From assembly GCF_030013595.1 (NCBI RefSeq), contig NZ_CP122771.1: a DNA stretch of 64,000 nt. One strand, written 5' to 3'. Position numbers and translations under genes: made by a program. Below, in pieces: positions 11,605-25,550 of the stretch (position 1 is its first letter; each line of letters begins with the position of its first letter). The notes under the pieces were generated by a model. That model did not search any database and was not told the DNA's origin. It saw only the letters and a list, made by a program, of their open reading frames with translations. The DNA is from Escherichia coli (GTDB taxonomy: Bacteria > Pseudomonadota > Gammaproteobacteria > Enterobacterales > Enterobacteriaceae).

Positions 11605-12964
11605 GCCTCTTTTTATTCTTTGTGCCGCCTTACTGACGGTGACGCCTGCAGCGTCAGCGGATGTGAACAGCGACATGAATCAGTTCTTTAACAAGCTGGG
11701 CTTCGCCTCCAATACCACACAGTCGGGCGTCTGGCAGGGGCAGGCTGCCGGCTATGCTTACGGCGGCTCCCTGTATGCCCGTACTCAGGTCAAAAATGTT
11801 CAGCTGATTTCCATGACGCTGCCGGATATCAATGCCGGATGTGGCGGCATCGATGCCTACCTCGGTTCGTTCAGTTTTATTAATGGCGAGCAGCTGCAGC
11901 GTTTTGTTAAGCAGATTATGAGCAATGCTGCCGGTTACTTCTTTGACCTTGCCCTGCAGACAACGGTGCCGGAAATTAAAACCGCAAAAGACTTCCTGCA
12001 GAAAATGGCAAGCGACATTAACAGTATGAACCTCAGTTCCTGCCAGGCGGCGCAGGGGATTATCGGCGGGCTTTTCCCCCGGACGCAGGTGTCCCAGCAA
12101 AAAGTCTGTCAGGACATTGCCGGTGAGAGCAATATTTTTGCTGACTGGGCGGCTTCCCGGCAGGGATGTACCGTTGGCGGTAAATCTGACAGCGTCAGGG
12201 ATAAAGCCAGCGACAAGGATAAGGAGCGGGTGACCAAAAACATTAACATCATGTGGAATGCGCTTTCCAAAAACAGAATGTTTGACGGCAACAAAGAGCT
12301 GAAAGAGTTTGTGATGACGCTGACCGGCTCACTGGTGTTTGGTCCCAACGGCGAAATCACACCGCTGTCGGCCAGAACCTCTGACCGCTCAATTATCCGG
12401 GCCATGATGGAAGGCGGCACAGCAAAAATTTATCACTGCAACGATTCTGATAAATGCCTGAAAGTGGTGGCTGACACACCGGTGACCATCAGCCGGGATA
12501 ATGCACTGAAGTCTCAGATTACTAAACTTCTGGCCAGCATTCAGAACAAAGCGGTCAGTGACACGCCTCTGGATGACAAGGAAAAAGGTTTTATTTCCAG
12601 TACCACCATCCCCGTCTTCAAATACCTGGTTGACCCGCAGATGCTCGGTGTTTCCAACAGTATGATTTACCAGCTGACGGACTATATCGGTTACGACATC
12701 CTGCTGCAGTACATTCAGGAGCTGATACAGCAGGCCCGGGCGATGGTGGCCACGGGAAATTATGACGAAGCAGTTATCGAACATATTAACGACAATATGA
12801 ATGATGCCACCCGGCAGATTGCGGCGTTTCAGTCACAGGTGCAGGTACAGCAGGATGCGCTGCTGGTTGTCGATCGTCAGATGAGCTACATGCGTCAGCA
12901 GCTTTCCGCCCGCATGCTCAGTCGTTACCAGAACAACTATCACTTCGGAGGGAGCACACTGTGA
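11591..12964 (+). CDS. traH: TraH
   Basis: 457 aa with signal peptide MLRIKPLFILCAALLTVTPAASA; matches F TraH. Confidence 0.95.
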   Translation: MLRIKPLFILCAALLTVTPAASADVNSDMNQFFNKLGFASNTTQSGVWQGQAAGYAYGGSLYARTQVKNVQLISMTLPDINAGCGGIDAYLGSFSFINGEQLQRFVKQIMSNAAGYFFDLALQTTVPEIKTAKDFLQKMASDINSMNLSSCQAAQGIIGGLFPRTQVSQQKVCQDIAGESNIFADWAASRQGCTVGGKSDSVRDKASDKDKERVTKNINIMWNALSKNRMFDGNKELKEFVMTLTGSLVFGPNGEITPLSARTSDRSIIRAMMEGGTAKIYHCNDSDKCLKVVADTPVTISRDNALKSQITKLLASIQNKAVSDTPLDDKEKGFISSTTIPVFKYLVDPQMLGVSNSMIYQLTDYIGYDILLQYIQELIQQARAMVATGNYDEAVIEHINDNMNDATRQIAAFQSQVQVQQDALLVVDRQMSYMRQQLSARMLSRYQNNYHFGGSTL

Positions 12965-15783
12965 ATGAAGTTTATGTGATTGCCGGTGGTGAGTGGTTGC
13001 GGAATAACCTGAATGCCATTGCCGCCTTTATGGGGACCCGGACGTGGGATTCCATTGAAAAAATTGCGCTCACATTGTCTGTTCTCGCGGTGGCCGTAAT
13101 GTGGGTACAGCGGCACAACGTGATGGATTTGCTGGGCTGGGTGGCCGTGTTTGTGCTTATCAGCCTACTGGTTAATGTCCGCACATCGGTGCAGATTATT
13201 GATAACAGTGACCTGGTCAAAGTTCACCGGGTGGATAATGTGCCGGTCGGACTGGCGATGCCACTTTCACTGACGACCCGTATCGGGCATGCAATGGTGG
13301 CCAGTTACGAGATGATCTTCACGCAACCGGACAGTGTCACCTACAGCAAAACGGGGATGCTGTTTGGCGCAGAACTGGTATCAAAAAGCACCGACTTTTT
13401 GTCCCGTAATCCGGAGATCGCCAATCTTTTCCAGGATTATGTGCAGAACTGCGTGATGGGGGATATTTACCTGAACCACAAATACACGCTGGAGGAACTG
13501 ATGGCCTCCGCTGATCCTTACACGCTGATTTTTTCCCGCCCCAGTCCGCTGCGGGGCGTTTATGACAGCAATAATAATTTCGTGACCTGTAAGGACGCGT
13601 CGGTTTCGCTGAAAGACAAGCTGAATCTGGACACACAGAGTGGCGGAAAAACATGGCATTATTATGCCCAGCAGCTATTTGGTGGACGCCCTGATCCGAA
13701 CCTGTTGTTCAGTACGCTGATTGGCGACAGTTACAGTTACTTCTATGGCTCAAGTAAATCAGCCAGCCAGATCATCCGCCAGAATGTCACCATCAATGCG
13801 CTGAAGGAGGGGATCACCAGTTATGCCGCACGTAATGGTGATTCGGCCAGCCTGGTGAATCTGGCCACCACATCATCGATGGAGAAGCAACGTCTGGCAC
13901 ATGTCTCCATCGGTCATGTGGCGATGCGGACACTGCCCATGACGCAGACCATCCTGACGGGGATCGCCATCGGTATTTTCCCGCTCCTGGTACTGGCGGC
14001 TGTCTTCAACAAACTGACGCTGTCCGTCCTGAAAGGCTATGTGTTTGCCCTGATGTGGTTGCAGTCATGGCCAATGTTGTACGCCATTCTGAACAGCGCC
14101 ATGACATTTTATGCGAAGCAGAATGGTGCACCGGTGGTGCTCTCGGAAATTTCACAGATACAGCTGAAATACTCCGATCTGGCTTCCACTGCCGGGTATC
14201 TTTCCATGATGATCCCGCCATTATCCTGGATGATGGTCAGGGGGCTCGGGGCAGGATTTTCCAGTGTGTACAGCCATTTCGCTTCCTCTGCTATCAGCCC
14301 GACCGCCAGTGCAGCAGGCAGTGTGGTTGACGGTAATTACTCCTACGGCAACATGCAGACGGAGAACGTGAACGGCTTCAGCTGGAGCACCAACAGCACC
14401 ACGTCGTTTGGTCAGATGATGTACCAGACCGGCAGTGGCGCAACCGCCACACAGACCCGTGACGGTAATATGGTGATGGATGCAAGCGGAGCTATGTCCC
14501 GGTTACCGGTCGGCATCAATGCAACGCGTCAGATTGCGGCAGCACAACAGGAAATGGCCCGGGAAGCATCGAACAGAGCAGAAAGTGCCCTGCATGGTTT
14601 CAGCAGCAGTATTGCCAGTGCCTGGAACACGCTCAGTCAGTTTGGTTCTAACCGGGGGAGCAGTGACTCTGTCACCGGTGGTGCTGACAGTACGATGAGT
14701 GCACAGGACTCCATGATGGCCAGCCGTATGCGCAGTGCAGTGGAAAGCTATGCGAAGGCGCATAATATCAGTAATGAGCAGGCGACTCAGGAACTGGCAT
14801 CCAGAAGTACGAGAGCTTCTGCCGGGATGTATGGAGATGCTCATGCTGAATGGGGGGTTAAACCTAAAATTCTTGGTGTTGGTGGCGGCTTAGGTGTTAA
14901 AGGTGGTGGTCGCGCTGGTATTGATTGGGAAGATAATGATGCGCATACGGCAAGTAGTAATACTCAGTCGAGCCATAATGCTCGTCATGATATCGATGCC
15001 AGAGCTACACAAGACTTTAAAGAGGCCAGCGATTACTTTACCAGTCGCAAGGTCAGTGAGTCCGGCAGCCATACTGACAATAATGCTGATTCCCGTGTGG
15101 ATCAGTTGTCTGCAGCCCTGAATTCAGCGAAGCAGAGTTACGACCAGTTCACGACGAATATGACCCGCAGCCATGAATATGCTGAAATGGCATCCCGTAC
15201 TGAAAGCATGAGTGGGCAGATGAGTGAAGACTTGTCGCAACAGTTTGCACAGTATGTAATGAAACACGCGCCACAGGATGCAGAAGCTATTCTGACAAAC
15301 ACCAGTTCACCGGAGATTGCAGAACGTCGTCGGGCGATGGCCTGGTCTTTTGTGCAGGAACAGGTACAGCCTGGTGTTGATAATGCCTGGCGGGAATCCC
15401 GTGGCGATATTGGTAAAGGAATGGAGAGCGTACCTTCGGGTGGTGGCAGTCAGGATATTATTGCTGACCATCAGGGACATCAGGCCATTATTGAGCAAAG
15501 AACGCAGGACAGTAATATCCGTAATGATGTAAAACATCAGGTTGATAATATGGTCACAGAATATAAAGGGAATATAGGTGATACTCAGAACAGCATACGT
15601 GGCGAGGAAAATATTGTAAGAGGACAGTATTCTGAGCTGCAGAATCACCATAAAACAGAGGCATTATCTCAGGATAATAAATATAATGAAGAAAAGTCGG
15701 CTCAGGAAAGAATGCCCGGGGCTGACAGTCCACAGGAACTTATGAAAAGGGCAAAGGAATATCAGGATAAGTATAAGCAATAA
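12961..15783 (+). CDS. traG: TraG (mating-pair stabilisation / entry exclusion target)
   Basis: 940 aa with N-terminal membrane domain and large periplasmic C-terminal domain; size as F TraG. Confidence 0.95.
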   Translation: MNEVYVIAGGEWLRNNLNAIAAFMGTRTWDSIEKIALTLSVLAVAVMWVQRHNVMDLLGWVAVFVLISLLVNVRTSVQIIDNSDLVKVHRVDNVPVGLAMPLSLTTRIGHAMVASYEMIFTQPDSVTYSKTGMLFGAELVSKSTDFLSRNPEIANLFQDYVQNCVMGDIYLNHKYTLEELMASADPYTLIFSRPSPLRGVYDSNNNFVTCKDASVSLKDKLNLDTQSGGKTWHYYAQQLFGGRPDPNLLFSTLIGDSYSYFYGSSKSASQIIRQNVTINALKEGITSYAARNGDSASLVNLATTSSMEKQRLAHVSIGHVAMRTLPMTQTILTGIAIGIFPLLVLAAVFNKLTLSVLKGYVFALMWLQSWPMLYAILNSAMTFYAKQNGAPVVLSEISQIQLKYSDLASTAGYLSMMIPPLSWMMVRGLGAGFSSVYSHFASSAISPTASAAGSVVDGNYSYGNMQTENVNGFSWSTNSTTSFGQMMYQTGSGATATQTRDGNMVMDASGAMSRLPVGINATRQIAAAQQEMAREASNRAESALHGFSSSIASAWNTLSQFGSNRGSSDSVTGGADSTMSAQDSMMASRMRSAVESYAKAHNISNEQATQELASRSTRASAGMYGDAHAEWGVKPKILGVGGGLGVKGGGRAGIDWEDNDAHTASSNTQSSHNARHDIDARATQDFKEASDYFTSRKVSESGSHTDNNADSRVDQLSAALNSAKQSYDQFTTNMTRSHEYAEMASRTESMSGQMSEDLSQQFAQYVMKHAPQDAEAILTNTSSPEIAERRRAMAWSFVQEQVQPGVDNAWRESRGDIGKGMESVPSGGGSQDIIADHQGHQAIIEQRTQDSNIRNDVKHQVDNMVTEYKGNIGDTQNSIRGEENIVRGQYSELQNHHKTEALSQDNKYNEEKSAQERMPGADSPQELMKRAKEYQDKYKQ

Positions 15784-15804
15784 TGCTGTTTTTGGGAGAT
15801 GATA

Positions 15805-16284
15805 ATGAGATGTTTAACCCATATTGCTCTGGTAGCGGTGATACAGTTTATCGCCTGTTATCTGGCTGGTTGGGAGAATGCCGAAACAATTTTTATGCTG
15901 TTCTTCATAGTACTATGGCAGGGACTGTTTATATGGTTGTTCTCTCAAATACGAAAAAAACGGAATGTGTCGGATGAGTTTAAGTTTAGTAAAGGCGTTT
16001 GGTATATAACGATGCCAGTATCTTCCTTACTCTCTCCATTATTAAGCCTGATGGTTTTTATCATTGGTACACTATACGAATTAAGGCGAGTTAGTGGTTG
16101 TGTAAGTGTAAGAGAATGGATGCAATCTCAGGTAAATGAACAAACTAATGAAGATTTGCATCTGGATTTTGATAATATGGATTTTCATCGTACTAATCCT
16201 GCAACAGGATTACCTATGTCAGGTATTGGTGTGGATATCGGTGGTAATTCATATGGTTATTGTTCAAAACGATATGATGAGTGA
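15805..16284 (+). CDS. traS: TraS, entry-exclusion inner-membrane protein
   Basis: AT-rich hydrophobic ORF between traG and traT; RBS gggag 6 nt before ATG 15805; TraS is position-conserved but sequence-variable. Confidence 0.65.
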   Translation: MRCLTHIALVAVIQFIACYLAGWENAETIFMLFFIVLWQGLFIWLFSQIRKKRNVSDEFKFSKGVWYITMPVSSLLSPLLSLMVFIIGTLYELRRVSGCVSVREWMQSQVNEQTNEDLHLDFDNMDFHRTNPATGLPMSGIGVDIGGNSYGYCSKRYDE

Positions 16285-16332
16285 ATCTTAATTTGTATAT
16301 TATGACGTTTTATTCAATATGAAGGAACATTG

Positions 16333-17064
16333 ATGAAAATGAAAAAATTGATGATGGTTGCACTGGTCAGTTCCACTCTGGCCCTTTCAGGGTGTGGTGC
16401 GATGAGCACAGCAATCAAGAAGCGTAACCTTGAGGTGAAGACTCAGATGAGTGAGACCATCTGGCTTGAACCCGCCAGCGAACGCACGGTATTTCTGCAG
16501 ATCAAAAACACGTCTGATAAAGACATGAGTGGGCTGCAGGGCAAAATTGCTGATGCTGTGAAAGCAAAAGGATATCAGGTGGTGACTTCTCCGGATAAAG
16601 CCTACTACTGGATTCAGGCGAATGTGCTGAAGGCCGATAAGATGGATCTGCGGGAATCTCAGGGATGGCTGAACCGTGGTTATGAAGGCGCAGCAGTTGG
16701 TGCAGCGTTAGGTGCCGGTATCACCGGATATAATTCCAGTTCTGCCGGTGCCACACTCGGTGTGGGCCTTGCTGCCGGTCTGGTGGGTATGGCTGCAGAT
16801 GCGATGGTGGAAGATGTGAACTATACCATGATCACGGATGTGCAGATTGCAGAGCGTACTAAGGCAACGGTGACAACGGATAATGTTGCCGCCCTGCGTC
16901 AGGGCACATCAGGTGCGAAAATTCAGACCAGTACTGAAACAGGTAACCAGCATAAATACCAGACCCGTGTGGTCTCAAATGCGAACAAGGTTAACCTGAA
17001 ATTTGAAGAGGCGAAGCCTGTTCTCGAAGACCAGCTGGCCAAATCAATCGCAAATATTCTCTGA
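16333..17064 (+). CDS. traT: TraT, surface-exclusion and serum-resistance lipoprotein
   Basis: Lipobox LALSGC; near-identity to recalled F TraT (…[49 protein letters not shown]…). Confidence 0.9.
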
Positions 17065-17072
17065 ACCTCGTC

Positions 17073-17097
17073 AGGAGGCTGGTCTGACCGGCCTCCT
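17073..17097 (+). terminator. Hairpin immediately after traT
   Basis: Inverted repeat AGGAGGCTGGTC / GACCGGCCTCCT directly downstream of the traT stop. Confidence 0.45.
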
Positions 17098-17266
17098 TGC
17101 TGACGCCTCGCGTTGCTCGTTGTCCAACCCCGGGACGTAACAAAATAAATTTTGTCACTTCCCGGCGTTTCCGAAATAAATATGAAAACACTGAGCGGTT
17201 GTGCAAATTCTTTGTGCGACCGTGAAGTGTTGCCGGCGAAGCCGGGATCTTCCGGAGAAAGTCATT

Positions 17267-18004
17267 ATGACATCAGACAATATCGCTGAATATGTTGGTG
17301 AGAATAATCAATTTACTGAGAAGCCTGTAACTGAATACCCCCCGGTGATACAGGATAATACAGTGACCACTAAAGACTATCTGTACAGCAATAATATTGA
17401 TACTGACCTTTTAGTGGTTATCGGAGGGCTTATTGTTATATTGTTTCTCATGATGCTTATCATGTACTTTATTAATTCTCTCAGGCATAAGGAATTAACT
17501 GAAATACTGACAAAAATATCTTTTCCTGAAAAATCCGGGAGCAATTCGCTTAAACCGGAAGCGGTCAGCTGTAATTTGTTGTCCCTGTGTGTGCTGGCAC
17601 CGGTATTCTTTACACCCAGAAAGCTGGCTGAAGTTTCCAGGGAGATCATCGTGGCGAGTGCGCAGGAAATTGCATGGACGCCGGGGAGCAGTCGTATTGA
17701 TGGCCACCAGGCGGAGAATATCACCTGGGCGATTTCATCGCAGTCTCCTGCCGATAAGTATGATCTCATCAATAAAACCTCCCGTGTTTCTCCTGACAGT
17801 GGCCGTTTTTATGAACCGGACACAGTTCTGGATCACCGTGAACGGGTACGCCTTTTTATTCAGATCCAGTTTCCGCATGGGAGTGACTGGTCTGAAGTAT
17901 TGCGCCTGACTGACATTGTTACAGAGAAGGTCTCTTCCGGCAGGGCTGCAGGCGGGTATCACCACCGACATACAGGGTACACCTGGTCTGTTTCTGTGAA
18001 TTAA
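17267..18004 (+). CDS. Hypothetical membrane protein between traT and traD
   Basis: RBS ggaga then ATG 17267; one predicted TM segment [22 protein letters not shown]; 246 aa. Confidence 0.5.
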
Positions 18005-18054
18005 CCCCACATCATCCTTTTCTGCCCTGTTCCAGATTTTCCCGGAGTTTCATC

Positions 18055-20280
18055 ATGAGTTTTAACGCAAAGGATATGACCCAGGGCGGTCAGATTGCGT
18101 CCATGCGTATCCGCATGTTCAGCCAGATCGCCAATATCATGCTTTACTGCCTGTTTATTTTTTTCTGGATACTCGTTGGTCTGATTTTATGGGTAAAAAT
18201 AAGCTGGCAGACGTTTGTGAACGGCTGTATTTACTGGTGGTGTACCACGCTGGAAGGCATGCGGGATTTAATCAAGTCCCAGCCAGTATATGAGATCCAG
18301 TATTACGGCAAAACCTTCCGGATGAACGCGGCTCAGGTACTGCATGATAAATACATGATCTGGTGCGGTGAGCAGCTATGGTCCGCATTCGTTCTGGCGT
18401 CTGTCGTGGCCCTGGTTATTTGCCTGATTACCTTCTTTGTTGTTTCCTGGATTCTGGGGCGTCAGGGTAAACAACAGAGCGAAAATGAAGTCACAGGTGG
18501 TCGTCAGCTGACAGACAATCCGAAAGATGTTGCCCGGATGCTGAAAAAAGACGGCAAGGACTCCGATATCCGGATTGGCGACCTGCCGATTATCCGAGAT
18601 TCCGAAATCCAGAACTTCTGTCTGCACGGCACAGTCGGGGCCGGTAAGTCGGAGGTTATCCGTCGTCTGGCCAACTACGCCCGTAAGCGTGGTGATATGG
18701 TGGTGATTTATGACCGTTCAGGGGAATTTGTTAAAAGTTACTATGATCCCTCCATCGATAAAATCCTGAATCCGCTGGATGCCCGCTGTGCCGCATGGGA
18801 TTTGTGGAAGGAGTGCCTGACACAGCCGGATTTTGATAATACCGCGAACACGCTGATCCCTATGGGTACAAAAGAGGACCCGTTCTGGCAGGGGTCAGGA
18901 CGTACCATTTTTGCGGAAGCGGCGTACCTGATGCGTAATGACCCCAACCGCAGCTACAGCAAACTGGTGGACACACTGCTTTCCATCAAAATCGAAAAAC
19001 TGCGTACCTTCCTGCGTAATTCACCGGCAGCCAACCTGGTGGAAGAGAAAATTGAGAAAACGGCGATTTCCATCCGTGCTGTGCTGACCAACTACGTGAA
19101 AGCCATCCGTTACCTGCAGGGGATTGAGCATAACGGTGAGTCTTTTACCATCCGTGACTGGATGCGTGGTGTCCGGGAAGATCAGAAAAACGGCTGGCTG
19201 TTTATCTCGTCGAATGCCGACACCCATGCCTCCCTGAAGCCGGTGATCTCCATGTGGCTGTCCATTGCCATTCGTGGTCTGCTGGCAATGGGAGAAAACC
19301 GTAATCGTCGTGTGTGGTTTTTCTGTGACGAGTTACCCACGTTACACAAACTGCCGGACCTGGTGGAGATCCTGCCGGAAGCCCGTAAGTTCGGTGGCTG
19401 TTATGTGTTTGGTATCCAGTCCTATGCCCAGCTGGAAGATATCTACGGTGAGAAAGCGGCGGCCACGCTGTTTGACGTCATGAACACCCGTGCCTTTTTC
19501 CGTTCTCCCAGCCATAAGATTGCAGAGTTCGCTGCCGGTGAAATTGGTGAGAAAGAGCACCTGAAAGCCAGCGAGCAGTATTCCTACGGTGCTGACCCGG
19601 TACGTGACGGGGTATCGACCGGTAAGGATATGGAGCGTCAGACGCTGGTCAGTTATTCCGACATTCAGTCTCTGCCGGATCTGACCTGTTATGTCACTCT
19701 GCCCGGACCGTATCCGGCAGTCAAACTCTCTCTGAAATATCAGGCACGTCCGAAGGTTGCCCCGGAGTTTATTCCGCGTGACATCAACCCGGAAATGGAG
19801 AACCGTCTGAGTGCCGTACTTGCCGCAAGGGAAGCAGAAGGTCGCCAGATGGCCAGCCTCTTCGAACCGGAGGTTGCCTCCGGAGAAGGCGTGACTCAGG
19901 CTGAACAGCCACAACAGCCACAACAGCCACAACAGCCACAACAGCCACAACAGCCACAACAGCCACAACAGCCACAACAGCCACAACAGCCACAACAGCC
20001 AGTGTCTTCTGTCATCAATGATAAGAAGTCAGATGCAGGTGTGAGTGTTCCGGCAGGGGGGATCGAGCAGGAGCTGAAAATGAAACCGGAAGAAGAGATG
20101 GAACAGCAACTGCCACCCGGGATCAGTGAATCCGGTGAAGTGGTGGATATGGCCGCTTATGAGGCATGGCAACAGGAAAATCATCCGGACATCCAGCAGC
20201 ATATGCAGCGTCGTGAAGAGGTGAACATTAATGTACACCGGGAGCGCGGGGAGGATGTTGAGCCGGGAGATGATTTCTGA
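18055..20280 (+). CDS. traD: TraD, type IV coupling protein
   Basis: 741 aa, N-terminal TM segments, Walker [10 protein letters not shown]-terminal QQP repeat tract and acidic tail as in F/R100 TraD. Confidence 0.95.
19906..19995 (+). repeat. Tandem 9-bp repeat (cagccacaa) x10 encoding the (QQP)n tract of TraD
   Basis: Ten perfect 9-bp units read directly in the sequence. Confidence 0.9.
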
Positions 20281-23200
20281 TGTTGAGTTTCAGCGTTGTT
20301 AAATCGGCAGGCAGTGCCGGAAACTATTACACCGACAAGGATAATTACTATGTGCTGGGCAGCATGGGAGAACGCTGGGCTGGTCAGGGGGCTGAACAGC
20401 TTGGGCTGCAGGGCAGCGTCGATAAGGATGTTTTTACCCGTCTTCTGGAGGGCAGGCTGCCGGACGGAGCGGATTTAAGCCGCATGCAGGATGGCAGTAA
20501 TAAGCATCGTCCCGGCTACGACCTGACCTTCTCCGCCCCCAAAAGTGTCTCCATGATGGCCATGCTCGGGGGGGATAAACGTCTTATTGATGCACATAAC
20601 CAGGCCGTGGATTTTGCTGTCCGTCAGGTGGAGGCGCTGGCTTCCACACGGGTGATGACGGACGGACAGTCAGAAACGGTGCTGACCGGTAATCTGGTGA
20701 TGGCACTGTTTAACCATGACACCAGTCGCGATCAGGACCCACAGTTACACACGCATGTGGTGGTGGCTAATGTCACGCAGCATAATGGCGAGTGGAAGAC
20801 ACTGAGCAGTGACAAAGTGGGGAAAACCGGATTTTCCGAGAACGTGCTCGCGAACCGGATTGCGTTCGGGAAAATATATCAGAGTGAGTTACGTCAGCGC
20901 GTTGAGGCGCTGGGTTATGAAACCGAAGTGGTCGGTAAGCACGGTATGTGGGAGATGCCGGGCGTACCGGTGGAGGCCTTTTCCAGTCGTTCACAGGCTA
21001 TCAGGGAGGCCGTCGGTGAAGACGCCTCGCTGAAATCCCGGGATGTGGCGGCGCTGGATACGCGTAAATCCAAACAGCACGTCGATCCGGAAATCAGAAT
21101 GGCTGAATGGATGCAGACGCTGAAGGAAACCGGGTTCGACATCCGGGCATATCGTGACGCGGCGGATCAGCGTGCGGAGATCCGCACGCTGACGCCCGGG
21201 CCTGCTTCACAGGACGGGCCGGATGTGCAGCAGGCGGTGACACAGGCGATTGCCGGATTAAGTGAACGAAAAGTGCAGTTCACGTACACGGACGTGCTGG
21301 CCAGAACGGTCGGCATACTGCCGCCGGAAAATGGTGTGATTGAACGGGCACGCGCCGGTATCGATGAGGCCATCAGCCGTGAGCAGCTTATCCCCCTCGA
21401 CCGTGAGAAGGGGCTGTTCACGTCCGGGATTCATGTGCTCGATGAGCTGTCAGTCCGGGCACTCAGTCGTGACATCATGAAACAGAACCGGGTGACCGTA
21501 CATCCGGAGAAAAGTGTTCCCCGGACGGCCGGTTACAGCGATGCCGTCAGCGTGCTGGCACAGGATCGCCCGTCGCTGGCCATTGTGTCCGGGCAGGGCG
21601 GTGCAGCCGGGCAGCGTGAGCGGGTGGCTGAACTGGTCATGATGGCCCGGGAGCAGGGGCGGGAGGTGCAGATTATCGCTGCTGACCGTCGCTCGCAGAT
21701 GAACATGAAGCAGGATGAGCGTCTGTCCGGTGAGCTGATAACCGGGCGGCGTCAGCTGCTGGAGGGCATGACCTTCACGCCGGGCAGTACCGTTATCGTC
21801 GACCAGGGCGAAAAACTCTCCCTGAAAGAGACGTTAACTCTGCTGGACGGTGCCGCACGGCATAACGTACAGGTCCTGATAATCGACAGCGGGCAGCGGA
21901 CCGGTACCGGCAGTGCGCTGATGGCCATGAAGGATGCCGGAGTGAACACATATCGCTGGCAGGGGGGAGAACAGCGACCGGCAACCATCATCAGTGAACC
22001 GGACCGTAATGTCCGCTATGCCCGGCTGGCCGGAGATTTTGCGGTCAGCGTGAAAGCCGGAGAAGAGAGCGTGGCGCAGGTCAGTGGAGTACGGGAACAG
22101 GCCATGCTGACTCAGACCATTCGCAGTGAGCTGAAAACACAGGGCGTACTCGGACATCCGGAGGTGACCATGACCGCGCTGTCACCGGTCTGGCTGGACA
22201 GCCGGAGTCGTTATCTGCGGGATATGTACCGCCCGGGGATGGTGATGGAGCAGTGGAACCCGGAGACACGCAGTCATGACCGCTATGTGATAGACCGGGT
22301 GACGGCGCAGAGTCACAGCCTGACCCTGCGGGATGCGCAGGGCGAAACGCAGGTGGTGCGTATTTCCTCCCTGGACAGCAGCTGGTCGCTGTTCCGGCCG
22401 GAAAAAATGCCGGTGGCAGACGGCGAGCGACTGAGGGTGACCGGGAAAATTCCCGGACTCCGAGTCTCCGGCGGTGACCGCCTGCAGGTGGCATCCGTCA
22501 GTGAAGATGTGATGACGGTTGTTGTGCCGGGGCGGGCTGAACCGGCCTCCCTGCCTGTGAGCGATTCACCGTTCACGGCACTGAAGCTGGAGAATGGCTG
22601 GGTGGAAACGCCCGGGCATTCCGTCAGCGACAGTGCGAAGGTTTTTGCCTCCGTCACACAGATGGCAATGGACAAGGCCACCCTGAACGGTCTGGCCCGC
22701 AGTGGTCGTGATGTCCGGCTGTATTCCTCACTGGATGAAACCCGTACTGCGGAAAAACTTGCCCGCCATCCGTCCTTTACGGTGGTTTCTGAGCAGATAA
22801 AGGCGCGGGCCGGTGAGACATCGCTGGAAACGGCTATCAGTCATCAGAAGTCCGCACTTAACACACCGGCACAGCAGGCCATTCATCTTGCCCTTCCGGT
22901 GGTGGAAAGTAAAAACCTGGCCTTCAGCCATGTGGACCTGCTGACAGAGGCAAAGTCGTTTGCTGCAGAAGGAACCAGTTTTGCTGACCTGGGGCGGGAA
23001 ATCAATGCGCAGATAAAACGCGGTGACTTACTGTATGTGGATGTGGCAAAAGGCTATGGCACAGGCCTGCTGGTTTCCCGTGCGTCGTATGAGGCAGAAA
23101 AGAGCATTCTTCGCCATATTCTCGAAGGTAAGGAGGCGGTCACGCCGCTGATGGAGAGAGTACCTGGCGAACTCATGGAGAAACTGACATCAGGACAGCG

Positions 23201-25550
23201 TGCCGCCACCCGCATGATACTGGAAACGTCCGACCGTTTCACGGTGGTGCAGGGCTATGCCGGTGTGGGTAAGACCACACAGTTCCGGGCGGTGATGTCA
23301 GCCGTGAACATGCTGCCGGAGAGTGAGCGTCCCCGTGTCGTTGGGCTGGGCCCCACGCACCGTGCGGTCGGGGAGATGCGCAGCGCCGGCGTGGATGCAC
23401 AGACACTGGCGTCCTTTCTGCATGACACGCAGCTGCAGCAGCGCAGCGGAGAAACGCCGGATTTCAGCAACACGCTGTTTCTGCTCGATGAGAGCTCAAT
23501 GGTGGGCAATACCGACATGGCACGGGCATACGCCCTGATTGCGGCCGGTGGTGGTCGTGCCGTGGCCAGCGGTGACACGGACCAGCTGCAGGCCATCGCG
23601 CCCGGTCAGCCTTTCCGTCTCCAGCAGACGCGCAGTGCTGCCGATGTGGTCATCATGAAGGAGATTGTGCGCCAGACGCCGGAGCTGCGGGAGGCGGTAT
23701 ACAGCCTGATTAACCGGGATGTGGAAAGGGCACTGTCCGGGCTTGAGAGTGTGAAACCGTCTCAGGTGCCACGTCAGGAGGGCGCATGGGTACCGGAGCA
23801 CTCCGTGACGGAGTTCAGTCACAGCCAGGAAGCGAAACTGGCAGAAGCGCAGCAGAAGGCGATGCTGAAAGGTGAGGCTTTTCCGGATATTCCCATGACA
23901 CTGTATGAAGCCATTGTCCGCGATTATACCGGCAGGACGCCGGAAGCACGGGAGCAGACGCTGATTGTCACGCATCTGAATGAGGACCGGCGCGTACTGA
24001 ACAGCATGATTCATGATGCACGGGAAAAGGCCGGTGAGCTGGGAAAAGAGCAGGTCATGGTGCCTGTCCTGAACACAGCGAATATACGCGACGGGGAGTT
24101 GCGTCGTCTCTCCACCTGGGAGACACATCGGGACGCACTTGCCCTGGTGGATAATGTGTATCACCGGATTGCCGGTATCAGCAAGGATGACGGGCTGATA
24201 ACTCTGCAGGATGCGGAAGGTAACACGCGGCTGATTTCGCCCCGGGAGGCGGTGGCTGAAGGCGTCACACTGTACACTCCGGACACCATCCGGGTGGGAA
24301 CCGGTGACCGGATGCGCTTCACGAAGAGTGACCGGGAGCGCGGTTATGTGGCCAACAGCGTCTGGACGGTGACAGCGGTTTCCGGTGACAGTGTCACGCT
24401 GTCGGACGGACAGCAGACCCGGGTGATTCGCCCCGCCCAGGAGCAGGCAGAGCAACATATTGACCTGGCCTATGCCATCACCGCCCACGGTGCGCAGGGG
24501 GCGAGTGAAACCTTTGCCATTGCGCTTGAAGGCACGGAAGGTAACCGGAAACTGATGGCCGGCTTTGAGTCAGCCTACGTGGCCCTGTCGCGTATGAAGC
24601 AGCATGTGCAGGTGTACACCGATAATCGTCAGGGCTGGACGGATGCCATTAACAATGCCGTACAGAAAGGAACTGCCCACGATGTGCTGGAGCCGAAACC
24701 GGACCGGGAGGTCATGAATGCAGAGCGGCTGTTCAGTACGGCGCGGGAGCTGCGGGACGTGGCGGCAGGGCGTGCCGTTCTTCGTCAGGCGGGGCTTGCC
24801 GGGGGAGACAGTCCTGCACGGTTTATTGCACCGGGACGTAAATATCCACAGCCGTATGTGGCACTGCCGGCGTTTGACCGTAACGGCAAATCAGCCGGTA
24901 TCTGGCTGAACCCGCTGACCTCGGATGACGGAAACGGGCTGCGGGGATTCAGCGGTGAAGGCCGTGTGAAAGGCAGCGGGGATGCGCAGTTCGTGGCCCT
25001 GCAGGGCAGCCGTAACGGAGAAAGCCTGCTGGCTGATAATATGCAGGAGGGTGTCCGGATTGCCCGTGATAATCCTGACAGCGGTGTGGTGGTAAGAATC
25101 GCCGGTGAAGGCCGTCCGTGGAATCCCGGTGCCATCACCGGTGGCCGCGTGTGGGGGGATATCCCGGACAACAGCGTCCAGCCGGGAGCCGGAAATGGCG
25201 AGCCGGTCACGGCAGAGGTACTGGCACAGCGGCAGGCTGAAGAGGCCATCCGCCGTGAAACGGAACGCCGTGCGGATGAAATTGTCCGTAAAATGGCAGA
25301 GAACAAACCTGACCTGCCGGATGGCAAAACAGAGCAGGCTGTCAGGGAGATTGCCGGGCAGGAGCGTGACCGGGCTGCCATAACTGAACGGGAAGCCGCG
25401 CTGCCGGAGAGTGTGCTGCGTGAATCACAACGGGAGCGGGAAGCGGTCCGGGAGGTTGCCCGGGAAAATCTGCTGCAGGAGCGTCTGCAGCAGATGGAGC
25501 GGGATATGGTTCGTGACCTGCAGAAAGAGAAAACCCTGGGCGGAGACTGA
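20280..25550 (+). CDS. traI: TraI, relaxase/helicase
   Basis: 1756 aa, N-terminus [24 protein letters not shown]; ATGA overlap with the traD stop; size identical to F TraI. Confidence 0.95.
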   Translation: MLSFSVVKSAGSAGNYYTDKDNYYVLGSMGERWAGQGAEQLGLQGSVDKDVFTRLLEGRLPDGADLSRMQDGSNKHRPGYDLTFSAPKSVSMMAMLGGDKRLIDAHNQAVDFAVRQVEALASTRVMTDGQSETVLTGNLVMALFNHDTSRDQDPQLHTHVVVANVTQHNGEWKTLSSDKVGKTGFSENVLANRIAFGKIYQSELRQRVEALGYETEVVGKHGMWEMPGVPVEAFSSRSQAIREAVGEDASLKSRDVAALDTRKSKQHVDPEIRMAEWMQTLKETGFDIRAYRDAADQRAEIRTLTPGPASQDGPDVQQAVTQAIAGLSERKVQFTYTDVLARTVGILPPENGVIERARAGIDEAISREQLIPLDREKGLFTSGIHVLDELSVRALSRDIMKQNRVTVHPEKSVPRTAGYSDAVSVLAQDRPSLAIVSGQGGAAGQRERVAELVMMAREQGREVQIIAADRRSQMNMKQDERLSGELITGRRQLLEGMTFTPGSTVIVDQGEKLSLKETLTLLDGAARHNVQVLIIDSGQRTGTGSALMAMKDAGVNTYRWQGGEQRPATIISEPDRNVRYARLAGDFAVSVKAGEESVAQVSGVREQAMLTQTIRSELKTQGVLGHPEVTMTALSPVWLDSRSRYLRDMYRPGMVMEQWNPETRSHDRYVIDRVTAQSHSLTLRDAQGETQVVRISSLDSSWSLFRPEKMPVADGERLRVTGKIPGLRVSGGDRLQVASVSEDVMTVVVPGRAEPASLPVSDSPFTALKLENGWVETPGHSVSDSAKVFASVTQMAMDKATLNGLARSGRDVRLYSSLDETRTAEKLARHPSFTVVSEQIKARAGETSLETAISHQKSALNTPAQQAIHLALPVVESKNLAFSHVDLLTEAKSFAAEGTSFADLGREINAQIKRGDLLYVDVAKGYGTGLLVSRASYEAEKSILRHILEGKEAVTPLMERVPGELMEKLTSGQRAATRMILETSDRFTVVQGYAGVGKTTQFRAVMSAVNMLPESERPRVVGLGPTHRAVGEMRSAGVDAQTLASFLHDTQLQQRSGETPDFSNTLFLLDESSMVGNTDMARAYALIAAGGGRAVASGDTDQLQAIAPGQPFRLQQTRSAADVVIMKEIVRQTPELREAVYSLINRDVERALSGLESVKPSQVPRQEGAWVPEHSVTEFSHSQEAKLAEAQQKAMLKGEAFPDIPMTLYEAIVRDYTGRTPEAREQTLIVTHLNEDRRVLNSMIHDAREKAGELGKEQVMVPVLNTANIRDGELRRLSTWETHRDALALVDNVYHRIAGISKDDGLITLQDAEGNTRLISPREAVAEGVTLYTPDTIRVGTGDRMRFTKSDRERGYVANSVWTVTAVSGDSVTLSDGQQTRVIRPAQEQAEQHIDLAYAITAHGAQGASETFAIALEGTEGNRKLMAGFESAYVALSRMKQHVQVYTDNRQGWTDAINNAVQKGTAHDVLEPKPDREVMNAERLFSTARELRDVAAGRAVLRQAGLAGGDSPARFIAPGRKYPQPYVALPAFDRNGKSAGIWLNPLTSDDGNGLRGFSGEGRVKGSGDAQFVALQGSRNGESLLADNMQEGVRIARDNPDSGVVVRIAGEGRPWNPGAITGGRVWGDIPDNSVQPGAGNGEPVTAEVLAQRQAEEAIRRETERRADEIVRKMAENKPDLPDGKTEQAVREIAGQERDRAAITEREAALPESVLRESQREREAVREVARENLLQERLQQMERDMVRDLQKEKTLGGD

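Follow-up and report, generated by a model that had tools for sequence, protein, structure and literature searches.

Introduction

In Escherichia coli, Klebsiella, Salmonella, and Shigella, F-like plasmids play a major part in carrying genes for resistance and virulence. The transfer operon of these plasmids often passes for fully catalogued; the catalogue was built on plasmid F, a fully proficient conjugative plasmid that carries no yhfA gene.

The open reading frame (ORF) in question appears by name in a 2009 paper, in which a truncated ORF located 50 nt upstream of traD in pEntH10407 is described as "conserved hypothetical protein YhfA", homologous to YhfA of plasmid R100 and with no counterpart in F (PMC2762410). 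The queries in the main comparative study of F-like tra regions were the F proteins together with TraM, TraY, and FinO of R100 (PMC5102898), a set that leaves the yhfA ORF out. The literature search yielded only the 2009 paper and one RNA-seq table; no functional study of the yhfA ORF was found in the literature searched.

The open reading frame between traT and traD

The analysed sequence (the window) is a 64,000-nucleotide stretch of E. coli DNA. It includes the distal part of an F-like transfer operon: traG (12961–15783), traS (15799–16284), traT (16330–17064, plus strand), the ORF considered here (17267–18004, plus strand), the coupling protein gene traD (18055–20280, plus strand), and, directly after it, traI (20280–25550). 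The ORF starts with an ATG at 17267 and ends with a TAA stop at 18004, leaving 50 nt to traD. The Shine-Dalgarno sequence GGAG (17254–17257, plus strand) was read off the sequence 9 nt upstream of the ATG. The initial annotation had reported an extra ORF with a good ribosome-binding site at this place, and both were found; its coordinates were kept, and the size was corrected from 246 aa to 245 codons plus stop (738 nt). The consensus scan for a promoter or terminator belonging to the ORF scored no better than shuffled sequence. PGAP calls the identical CDS in a 100% identical plasmid, NZ_CP122686.1 ("hypothetical protein", WP_069199865.1), as well as a CDS at this slot in R100.

In plasmid F (NC_002483), the traT-traD spacer is 252 bp long with no gene inside, and the spacers of two further F-type plasmids are likewise without a gene, so the initial statement that this spacer is non-coding in F was correct. 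The corresponding spacer of pSLT is 376 bp. R100 (NC_002134; locus L008, 15463–16200) has a 738-bp CDS between traT and traD, equal in length to the window ORF and differing from it at 8 nucleotides over 738 bp (3 synonymous and 5 non-synonymous differences). The proteins share 98% amino-acid identity (R100 protein WP_000199905.1). Taking identity and architecture together, the window ORF is almost certainly R100-type yhfA. The novelty that had been implied for the ORF was not upheld: since R100 has the same CDS, called YhfA in its old annotation, and a 2009 paper used this name and stated that F has no counterpart (PMC2762410), the finding is a re-discovery of a long-annotated ORF. Its homologues carry the label "hypothetical protein" throughout, with no known function assigned.

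The region 3' of traT (17065–17248, plus strand) is structured and conserved, matching 4,029 plasmids at 88–98% identity with or without an ORF following. Folding of 17058–17270 gave three strong hairpins (RNA fold z = −6.55 against shuffles), and the spacer region had no Rfam match. The region probably serves as an attenuator or as the 3' end of the traT mRNA, ahead of the ORF. An RNA element in place of a gene was considered for the spacer and rejected, as the coding signal is clear and Rfam gave no match.

In the single RNA-seq data set found, that of the IncFII(K) plasmid pBIC1a (PMC6286996), the RPKM values were 231 for traS, 282 for traT, 8 for the traT-traD ORF, 7 for traD, and 10 for traI, the ORF being taken as a yhfA homologue from its position. 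Position, together with the prevalence of the Klebsiella branch described below, makes this ORF a likely member of the yhfA family. Because its RPKM resembles those of traD and traI, not those of traS and traT, yhfA would fall in the low-level traD-traI part of the transcript and, by this one Klebsiella plasmid, is probably transcribed at a low level with these genes. In pBIC1a, the RNA level falls about 30-fold between traT and the gene that follows, which would fit an attenuator at 17065–17248.

A perfect 9-bp tandem repeat, AACAGCCAC, was observed inside traD (window 19904–20001), where it encodes the QQP run of the TraD C-terminal region. It is present in 10.9 copies in the window vs 22.9 copies in a plasmid with a 100% identical traT-traD spacer (locus L001, 6840–7045); given these copy numbers, the length of the TraD tail varies by repeat slippage.

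Distribution and synteny

Alignment, megablast coverage classes, and a repeat search delimited the segment that separates R100-type from F-type plasmids (17249–18027, plus strand). About 780 bp in the window stand here in place of about 60 bp in F; the sequence common to both stops at about 17248 and resumes at about 18028. The repeat search found no direct or inverted repeats flanking the segment, and a mobile cassette was rejected on this ground.

When the 990-bp spacer was searched against PLSDB by megablast, 4,029 plasmids were matched. The whole spacer was present in 1,770 of them, and most other matches covered only its first ~184 bases. The tblastn search of PLSDB with the protein gave 1,935 plasmids, 1,795 of them with near-full-length matches; by genus, 1,393 matches were in Escherichia, 365 in Klebsiella, 97 in Shigella, and 58 in Salmonella. 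The Klebsiella branch of the family adds 2,304 PLSDB plasmids (1,652 near full length). The gene is thus spread among F-like plasmids, with about 1,800 R100-type carriers and about 2,300 Klebsiella plasmids, and roughly 3,400 near-full-length copies in all among the 72,556 plasmids of PLSDB. The backbones with the gene include R100-type IncFII and Klebsiella IncFII(K).

More distant relatives were found in the same operon position. The divergent E. coli F-like plasmid pRHB35-C14_2, whose TraD and TraT are 48% and 81% identical to those of the window, carries a family member at 29% identity (pairwise E 3e-27) directly after traT. Exhaustive profile searching with HMMER across 1.84 billion representative proteins gave only 62 matches, and all those inspected were family members or fragments. 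The most distant full-length matches, P0141 and P0144, showed 21–22% identity: P0141 lies immediately upstream of the TraD gene, and P0144 is flanked by the C-terminus of TraT and the N-terminus of TraD. When both were used to seed a second search, the large Klebsiella branch came to light. P0141 and P0156, a Klebsiella sequence, lie 126–128 nt before traD.

Three contexts were seen in Klebsiella. The first is canonical, traG-traS-traT-X-traD-traI, with the yhfA-like gene as X; the second, in the P0205 lineage, is traG-traS-yhfA-like-traD with no traT; the third comprises IS-disrupted tra regions in which the yhfA-like gene still stands beside traD (e.g., locus L017). In the window, R100, and the further loci, the gene is placed after traS/traT and before traD. 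Since homologues down to about 20% identity share this slot in E. coli and Klebsiella lineages, yhfA is read from the sequences as ancestral to enterobacterial F-like plasmids and as lost in F and pSLT, not gained by R100.

The idea that the F or pSLT spacer is a recognisable remnant of yhfA was not upheld. The 376-bp spacer of pSLT has, at 2716–2810 of locus L003, a small ORF-like stretch, MTNGNPFS-TGA-LFAVLVVCAAVLYFLKKRK, which resembles a tiny transmembrane (TM) peptide with an in-frame stop and could be a remnant, although no link to yhfA was found. In pRHB35-C14_2 (locus L005, 4436–5581), a DUF2726 gene and vapBC, a toxin-antitoxin pair, stand between the yhfA-like gene and traD, and in F (locus L023, 6967–7592) vapBC follows traD, ahead of traI. 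Genes of the addiction or defence type appear to use the two sides of traD as a landing zone.

Protein architecture and predicted fold

Hydropathy analysis of the window protein gave one strong hydrophobic stretch, aa 48–66 (17408–17464, plus strand; Kyte-Doolittle mean 3.22), in agreement with the single TM segment reported initially. The second-best segment scored 1.74 and forms a beta-strand in the model; in the full-length AlphaFold2 (AF2) model, the helix spans residues 46–85. The TM helix is preceded by an acidic tail, aa 1–47 (17267–17407, plus strand; 2 K/R vs 9 D/E), that varies between alleles and is predicted to be periplasmic. The conserved C-terminal alpha/beta domain, aa 97–245 (17555–18001, plus strand), is predicted to be cytoplasmic.

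The same layout was found in every lineage: an acidic N-tail of 37–52 aa, one TM helix, a variable linker, and a conserved domain of about 150 aa. Twelve residues do not vary among five lineages that share about 20% identity (L105, L120, G140, R143, D145, W154, G179, L214, G229, G230, G237, and Y238). The family motifs PG..R.D, W154, GG, and GY(T) are present in the window protein, as judged by alignments, hydropathy, and charge counts. The C-terminal part has 2–8 cysteines. In eight sequences from five lineages, the 15 residues past the TM helix contain 2–5 K/R vs 0–1 in the 15 before it, and the whole N-tail across lineages has 1–2 K/R vs 6–9 D/E. By the positive-inside rule, the K/R cluster after the helix and the acidic N-tail predict an N-out/C-in topology with the conserved domain in the cytoplasm.

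The AF2 model of the full-length protein reached pLDDT 56.6, too low for use. The C-domain was modelled with AlphaFold2 on a deeper alignment of 18 sequences, which gave pLDDT 83.4 and pTM 0.81, with the order b1-a1-b2-b3-long loop-b4-a2-b5-b6. The long loop was modelled with low confidence, yet R173, P176, G179, and P184 are conserved in it, for which reason it may be a binding loop. The predicted fold itself gives no functional clue.

Selection, mosaic structure, and disrupted alleles

Pairwise Nei-Gojobori estimates were made across eight loci. The dN/dS was 0.2–0.6 for the whole gene, 0.12–0.26 for the C-terminal domain (aa 97–245; dS up to about 1.7), and 0.3–0.9 for aa 1–96. Judged by these substitution patterns, the ORF is a genuine gene under purifying selection, and this, together with the PGAP call and the syntenic homologues at 20–30% identity, shows that it is no chance reading frame.

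The P0029 allele is a recombinant mosaic, since its dS was 1.4 in the N-part vs 0.2 in the C-part. In the window, the coding part for aa 1–96 (17267–17554; N-tail, TM helix, and linker) has a GC content of 35%, with 37% in traS, and the part for the conserved domain (17555–18004) has 52%, resembling traT and traD. This sharp break in composition inside the ORF, at 17554/17555, agrees with the mosaic dS pattern. On the contig with the P0029 allele, no plus-strand traS is present between traG and traT; a 107-aa minus-strand ORF is found there (locus L012, 1661–1984).

Disrupted alleles are common (clusters P0017, P0006, and P0026; locus L007; Klebsiella H159–H165). The P0017 allele, with 921 member sequences, is N-truncated, starts at M69, and is without the TM helix. 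Frameshifted forms of 213 aa exist among the database copies, and IS insertions were seen, including an IS66 just upstream. Many Klebsiella plasmids keep only a remnant matching aa 1–38 of the Klebsiella query P0156.

Comparison with known protein families

The window protein, a distant homologue, and the 26 members of the family alignment were searched against Pfam, NCBIfam, PADLOC, and PHROGs with nothing significant. The window protein itself had no match in PADLOC-DB or PHROGs; the distant homologue had a marginal PADLOC match (E 0.007) confined to the TM region. No relative of solved structure was obtained by a PDB sequence-profile search or by fold comparison of the predicted model. The yhfA family is an orphan family, without a Pfam or NCBIfam model.

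The exclusion proteins encoded upstream were compared separately. NCBIfam gave no match of the window protein to the TraS profile NF010304 at E up to 1, and the genuine TraS neighbours match this profile at 1e-23 to 1e-38. Pfam gave no match of the window protein to TraT (PF05818). The N-terminus was read as acidic and without a signal peptide or lipobox.

Possible functions

In the explanation that we favour, yhfA would be an ancestral, dispensable member of the enterobacterial F-like transfer operon. Its product would be a bitopic inner-membrane protein with a short acidic periplasmic N-tail, a TM helix, a flexible linker, and a cytoplasmic alpha/beta domain. The gene, placed past the structured region 3' of traT, would be transcribed at a low level together with traD and traI. 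The protein would act on the cytoplasmic side of the inner membrane, beside TraD and the relaxosome docking site, as a non-essential modulator of transfer and not as an outer-envelope exclusion factor. As a whole, weighted towards the mechanism, this explanation is given a probability of roughly 0.4.

Its central element, a dispensable accessory that is expressed with traD and acts on the cytoplasmic side near TraD or the relaxosome docking site, is put forward tentatively. A role near TraD is argued for by the fixed slot before traD, kept even without traT, by the traD-like expression, and by the predicted cytoplasmic domain; for the proximity to TraD as such, the pointer is gene position only. 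TraD does not need the YhfA protein, since aa 1–470 of TraD are 99% identical in plasmids with and without yhfA. Co-variation of TraD with yhfA was rejected on the same figure. A tight partnership with TraD is weighed against by this identity, by the transfer of F, by the common truncated alleles, and by the separation of the two genes in pRHB35.

A bolder version would make YhfA an unrecognised component of F-like conjugation whose fold has no solved relative, either a membrane-tethered partner or regulator of TraD or a third inner-membrane (anti-)exclusion determinant with a variable periplasmic tail that gives it specificity. We regard it as doubtful; if true, the absence of the gene from F would explain how fifty years of F genetics missed it.

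YhfA could instead be cargo unrelated to conjugation, carried in a permissive slot and serving defence, abortive infection against pilus-specific phages, addiction, or host interaction. The traT-traD slot does take foreign genes (DUF2726 and vapBC in pRHB35, a 261-bp ORF in pUTAK-4-3, and IS elements), yhfA is often lost with TraD unchanged, and abortive-infection effectors are commonly built from a membrane anchor and a small cytoplasmic domain. However, at all loci examined, down to 20% identity, the gene precedes traD, in one case with inserted genes in between, and so fixed a position is unusual for mobile cargo. Flanking repeats and mobility signatures were also absent, no match in the exhaustive search looked like another family, and the defence and phage databases gave nothing beyond the marginal TM-region match in PADLOC. 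Overall, a cargo role is considered unlikely.

The initial annotation had proposed an exclusion or envelope function from the position after the exclusion genes. The factor would act in the recipient or donor envelope with TraS and TraT, its N-tail recognising an incoming T4SS component. An extra single-pass membrane gene is indeed present directly after traS-traT, and TraS is an inner-membrane protein. Moreover, the N-terminal third is hypervariable and mosaic (dN/dS up to 0.9; an allele swap with dS 1.4 vs 0.2 in the C-domain), it resembles the specificity gene traS in its low GC content, the variable short tail is predicted to be periplasmic, and different N-tail alleles accompany different traS alleles in the few loci examined. 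The role itself is weakened by the predicted cytoplasmic location of the conserved domain, by the persistence of the gene in the traS-bearing Klebsiella lineage that has no traT, and by expression resembling traD and not traS/traT, the homology of the pBIC1a ORF being assumed from position. In addition, the protein resembles neither the TraS nor the TraT models, and plasmids with near-identical TraT and 82% identical TraS are without yhfA. An exclusion role is therefore less likely than an accessory role near TraD, and we hold it to be quite improbable.

That yhfA is a decaying, non-functional relic that merely remains open is very hard to reconcile with a C-domain dN/dS of 0.12–0.26 at dS up to 1.7, the twelve invariant residues, the confident compact fold of the conserved domain, and the 1,795 near-full-length copies among 1,935 in PLSDB, even though truncated and frameshifted database copies are many and the gene is dispensable in F.

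As a finding, the ORF is ordinary; as a target, it is reasonable and cheap for a conjugation laboratory. If yhfA modulates transfer or exclusion, it would account for some of the ways in which clinical F-like plasmids and F differ in behaviour; if it has no effect on transfer, its product is no more than an orphan membrane protein with a wide distribution.

Comparison with described systems

TraS, the F-like entry exclusion protein, is likewise a small inner-membrane protein of the traG-traS-traT-traD block, and both it and YhfA have hypervariable, AT-rich coding sequence. TraS is polytopic and belongs to NF010304, whereas YhfA crosses the membrane once, carries a conserved soluble domain, and gave no match to TraS models. 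TraJ of the IncHI1 plasmid R27 and DotM of Legionella are membrane partners of T4SS coupling proteins and are important for function. They offer an analogy in being membrane-anchored, with a cytoplasm-facing part and a gene beside the coupling protein gene, although no sequence or fold similarity to YhfA was detected and yhfA, unlike those partners, is dispensable. The closest system is yhfA of R100 (NR1), whose position, 738-bp length, and 50-nt gap to traD all equal those in the window; there is no difference of substance, and the window copy is an allele of the R100 gene.
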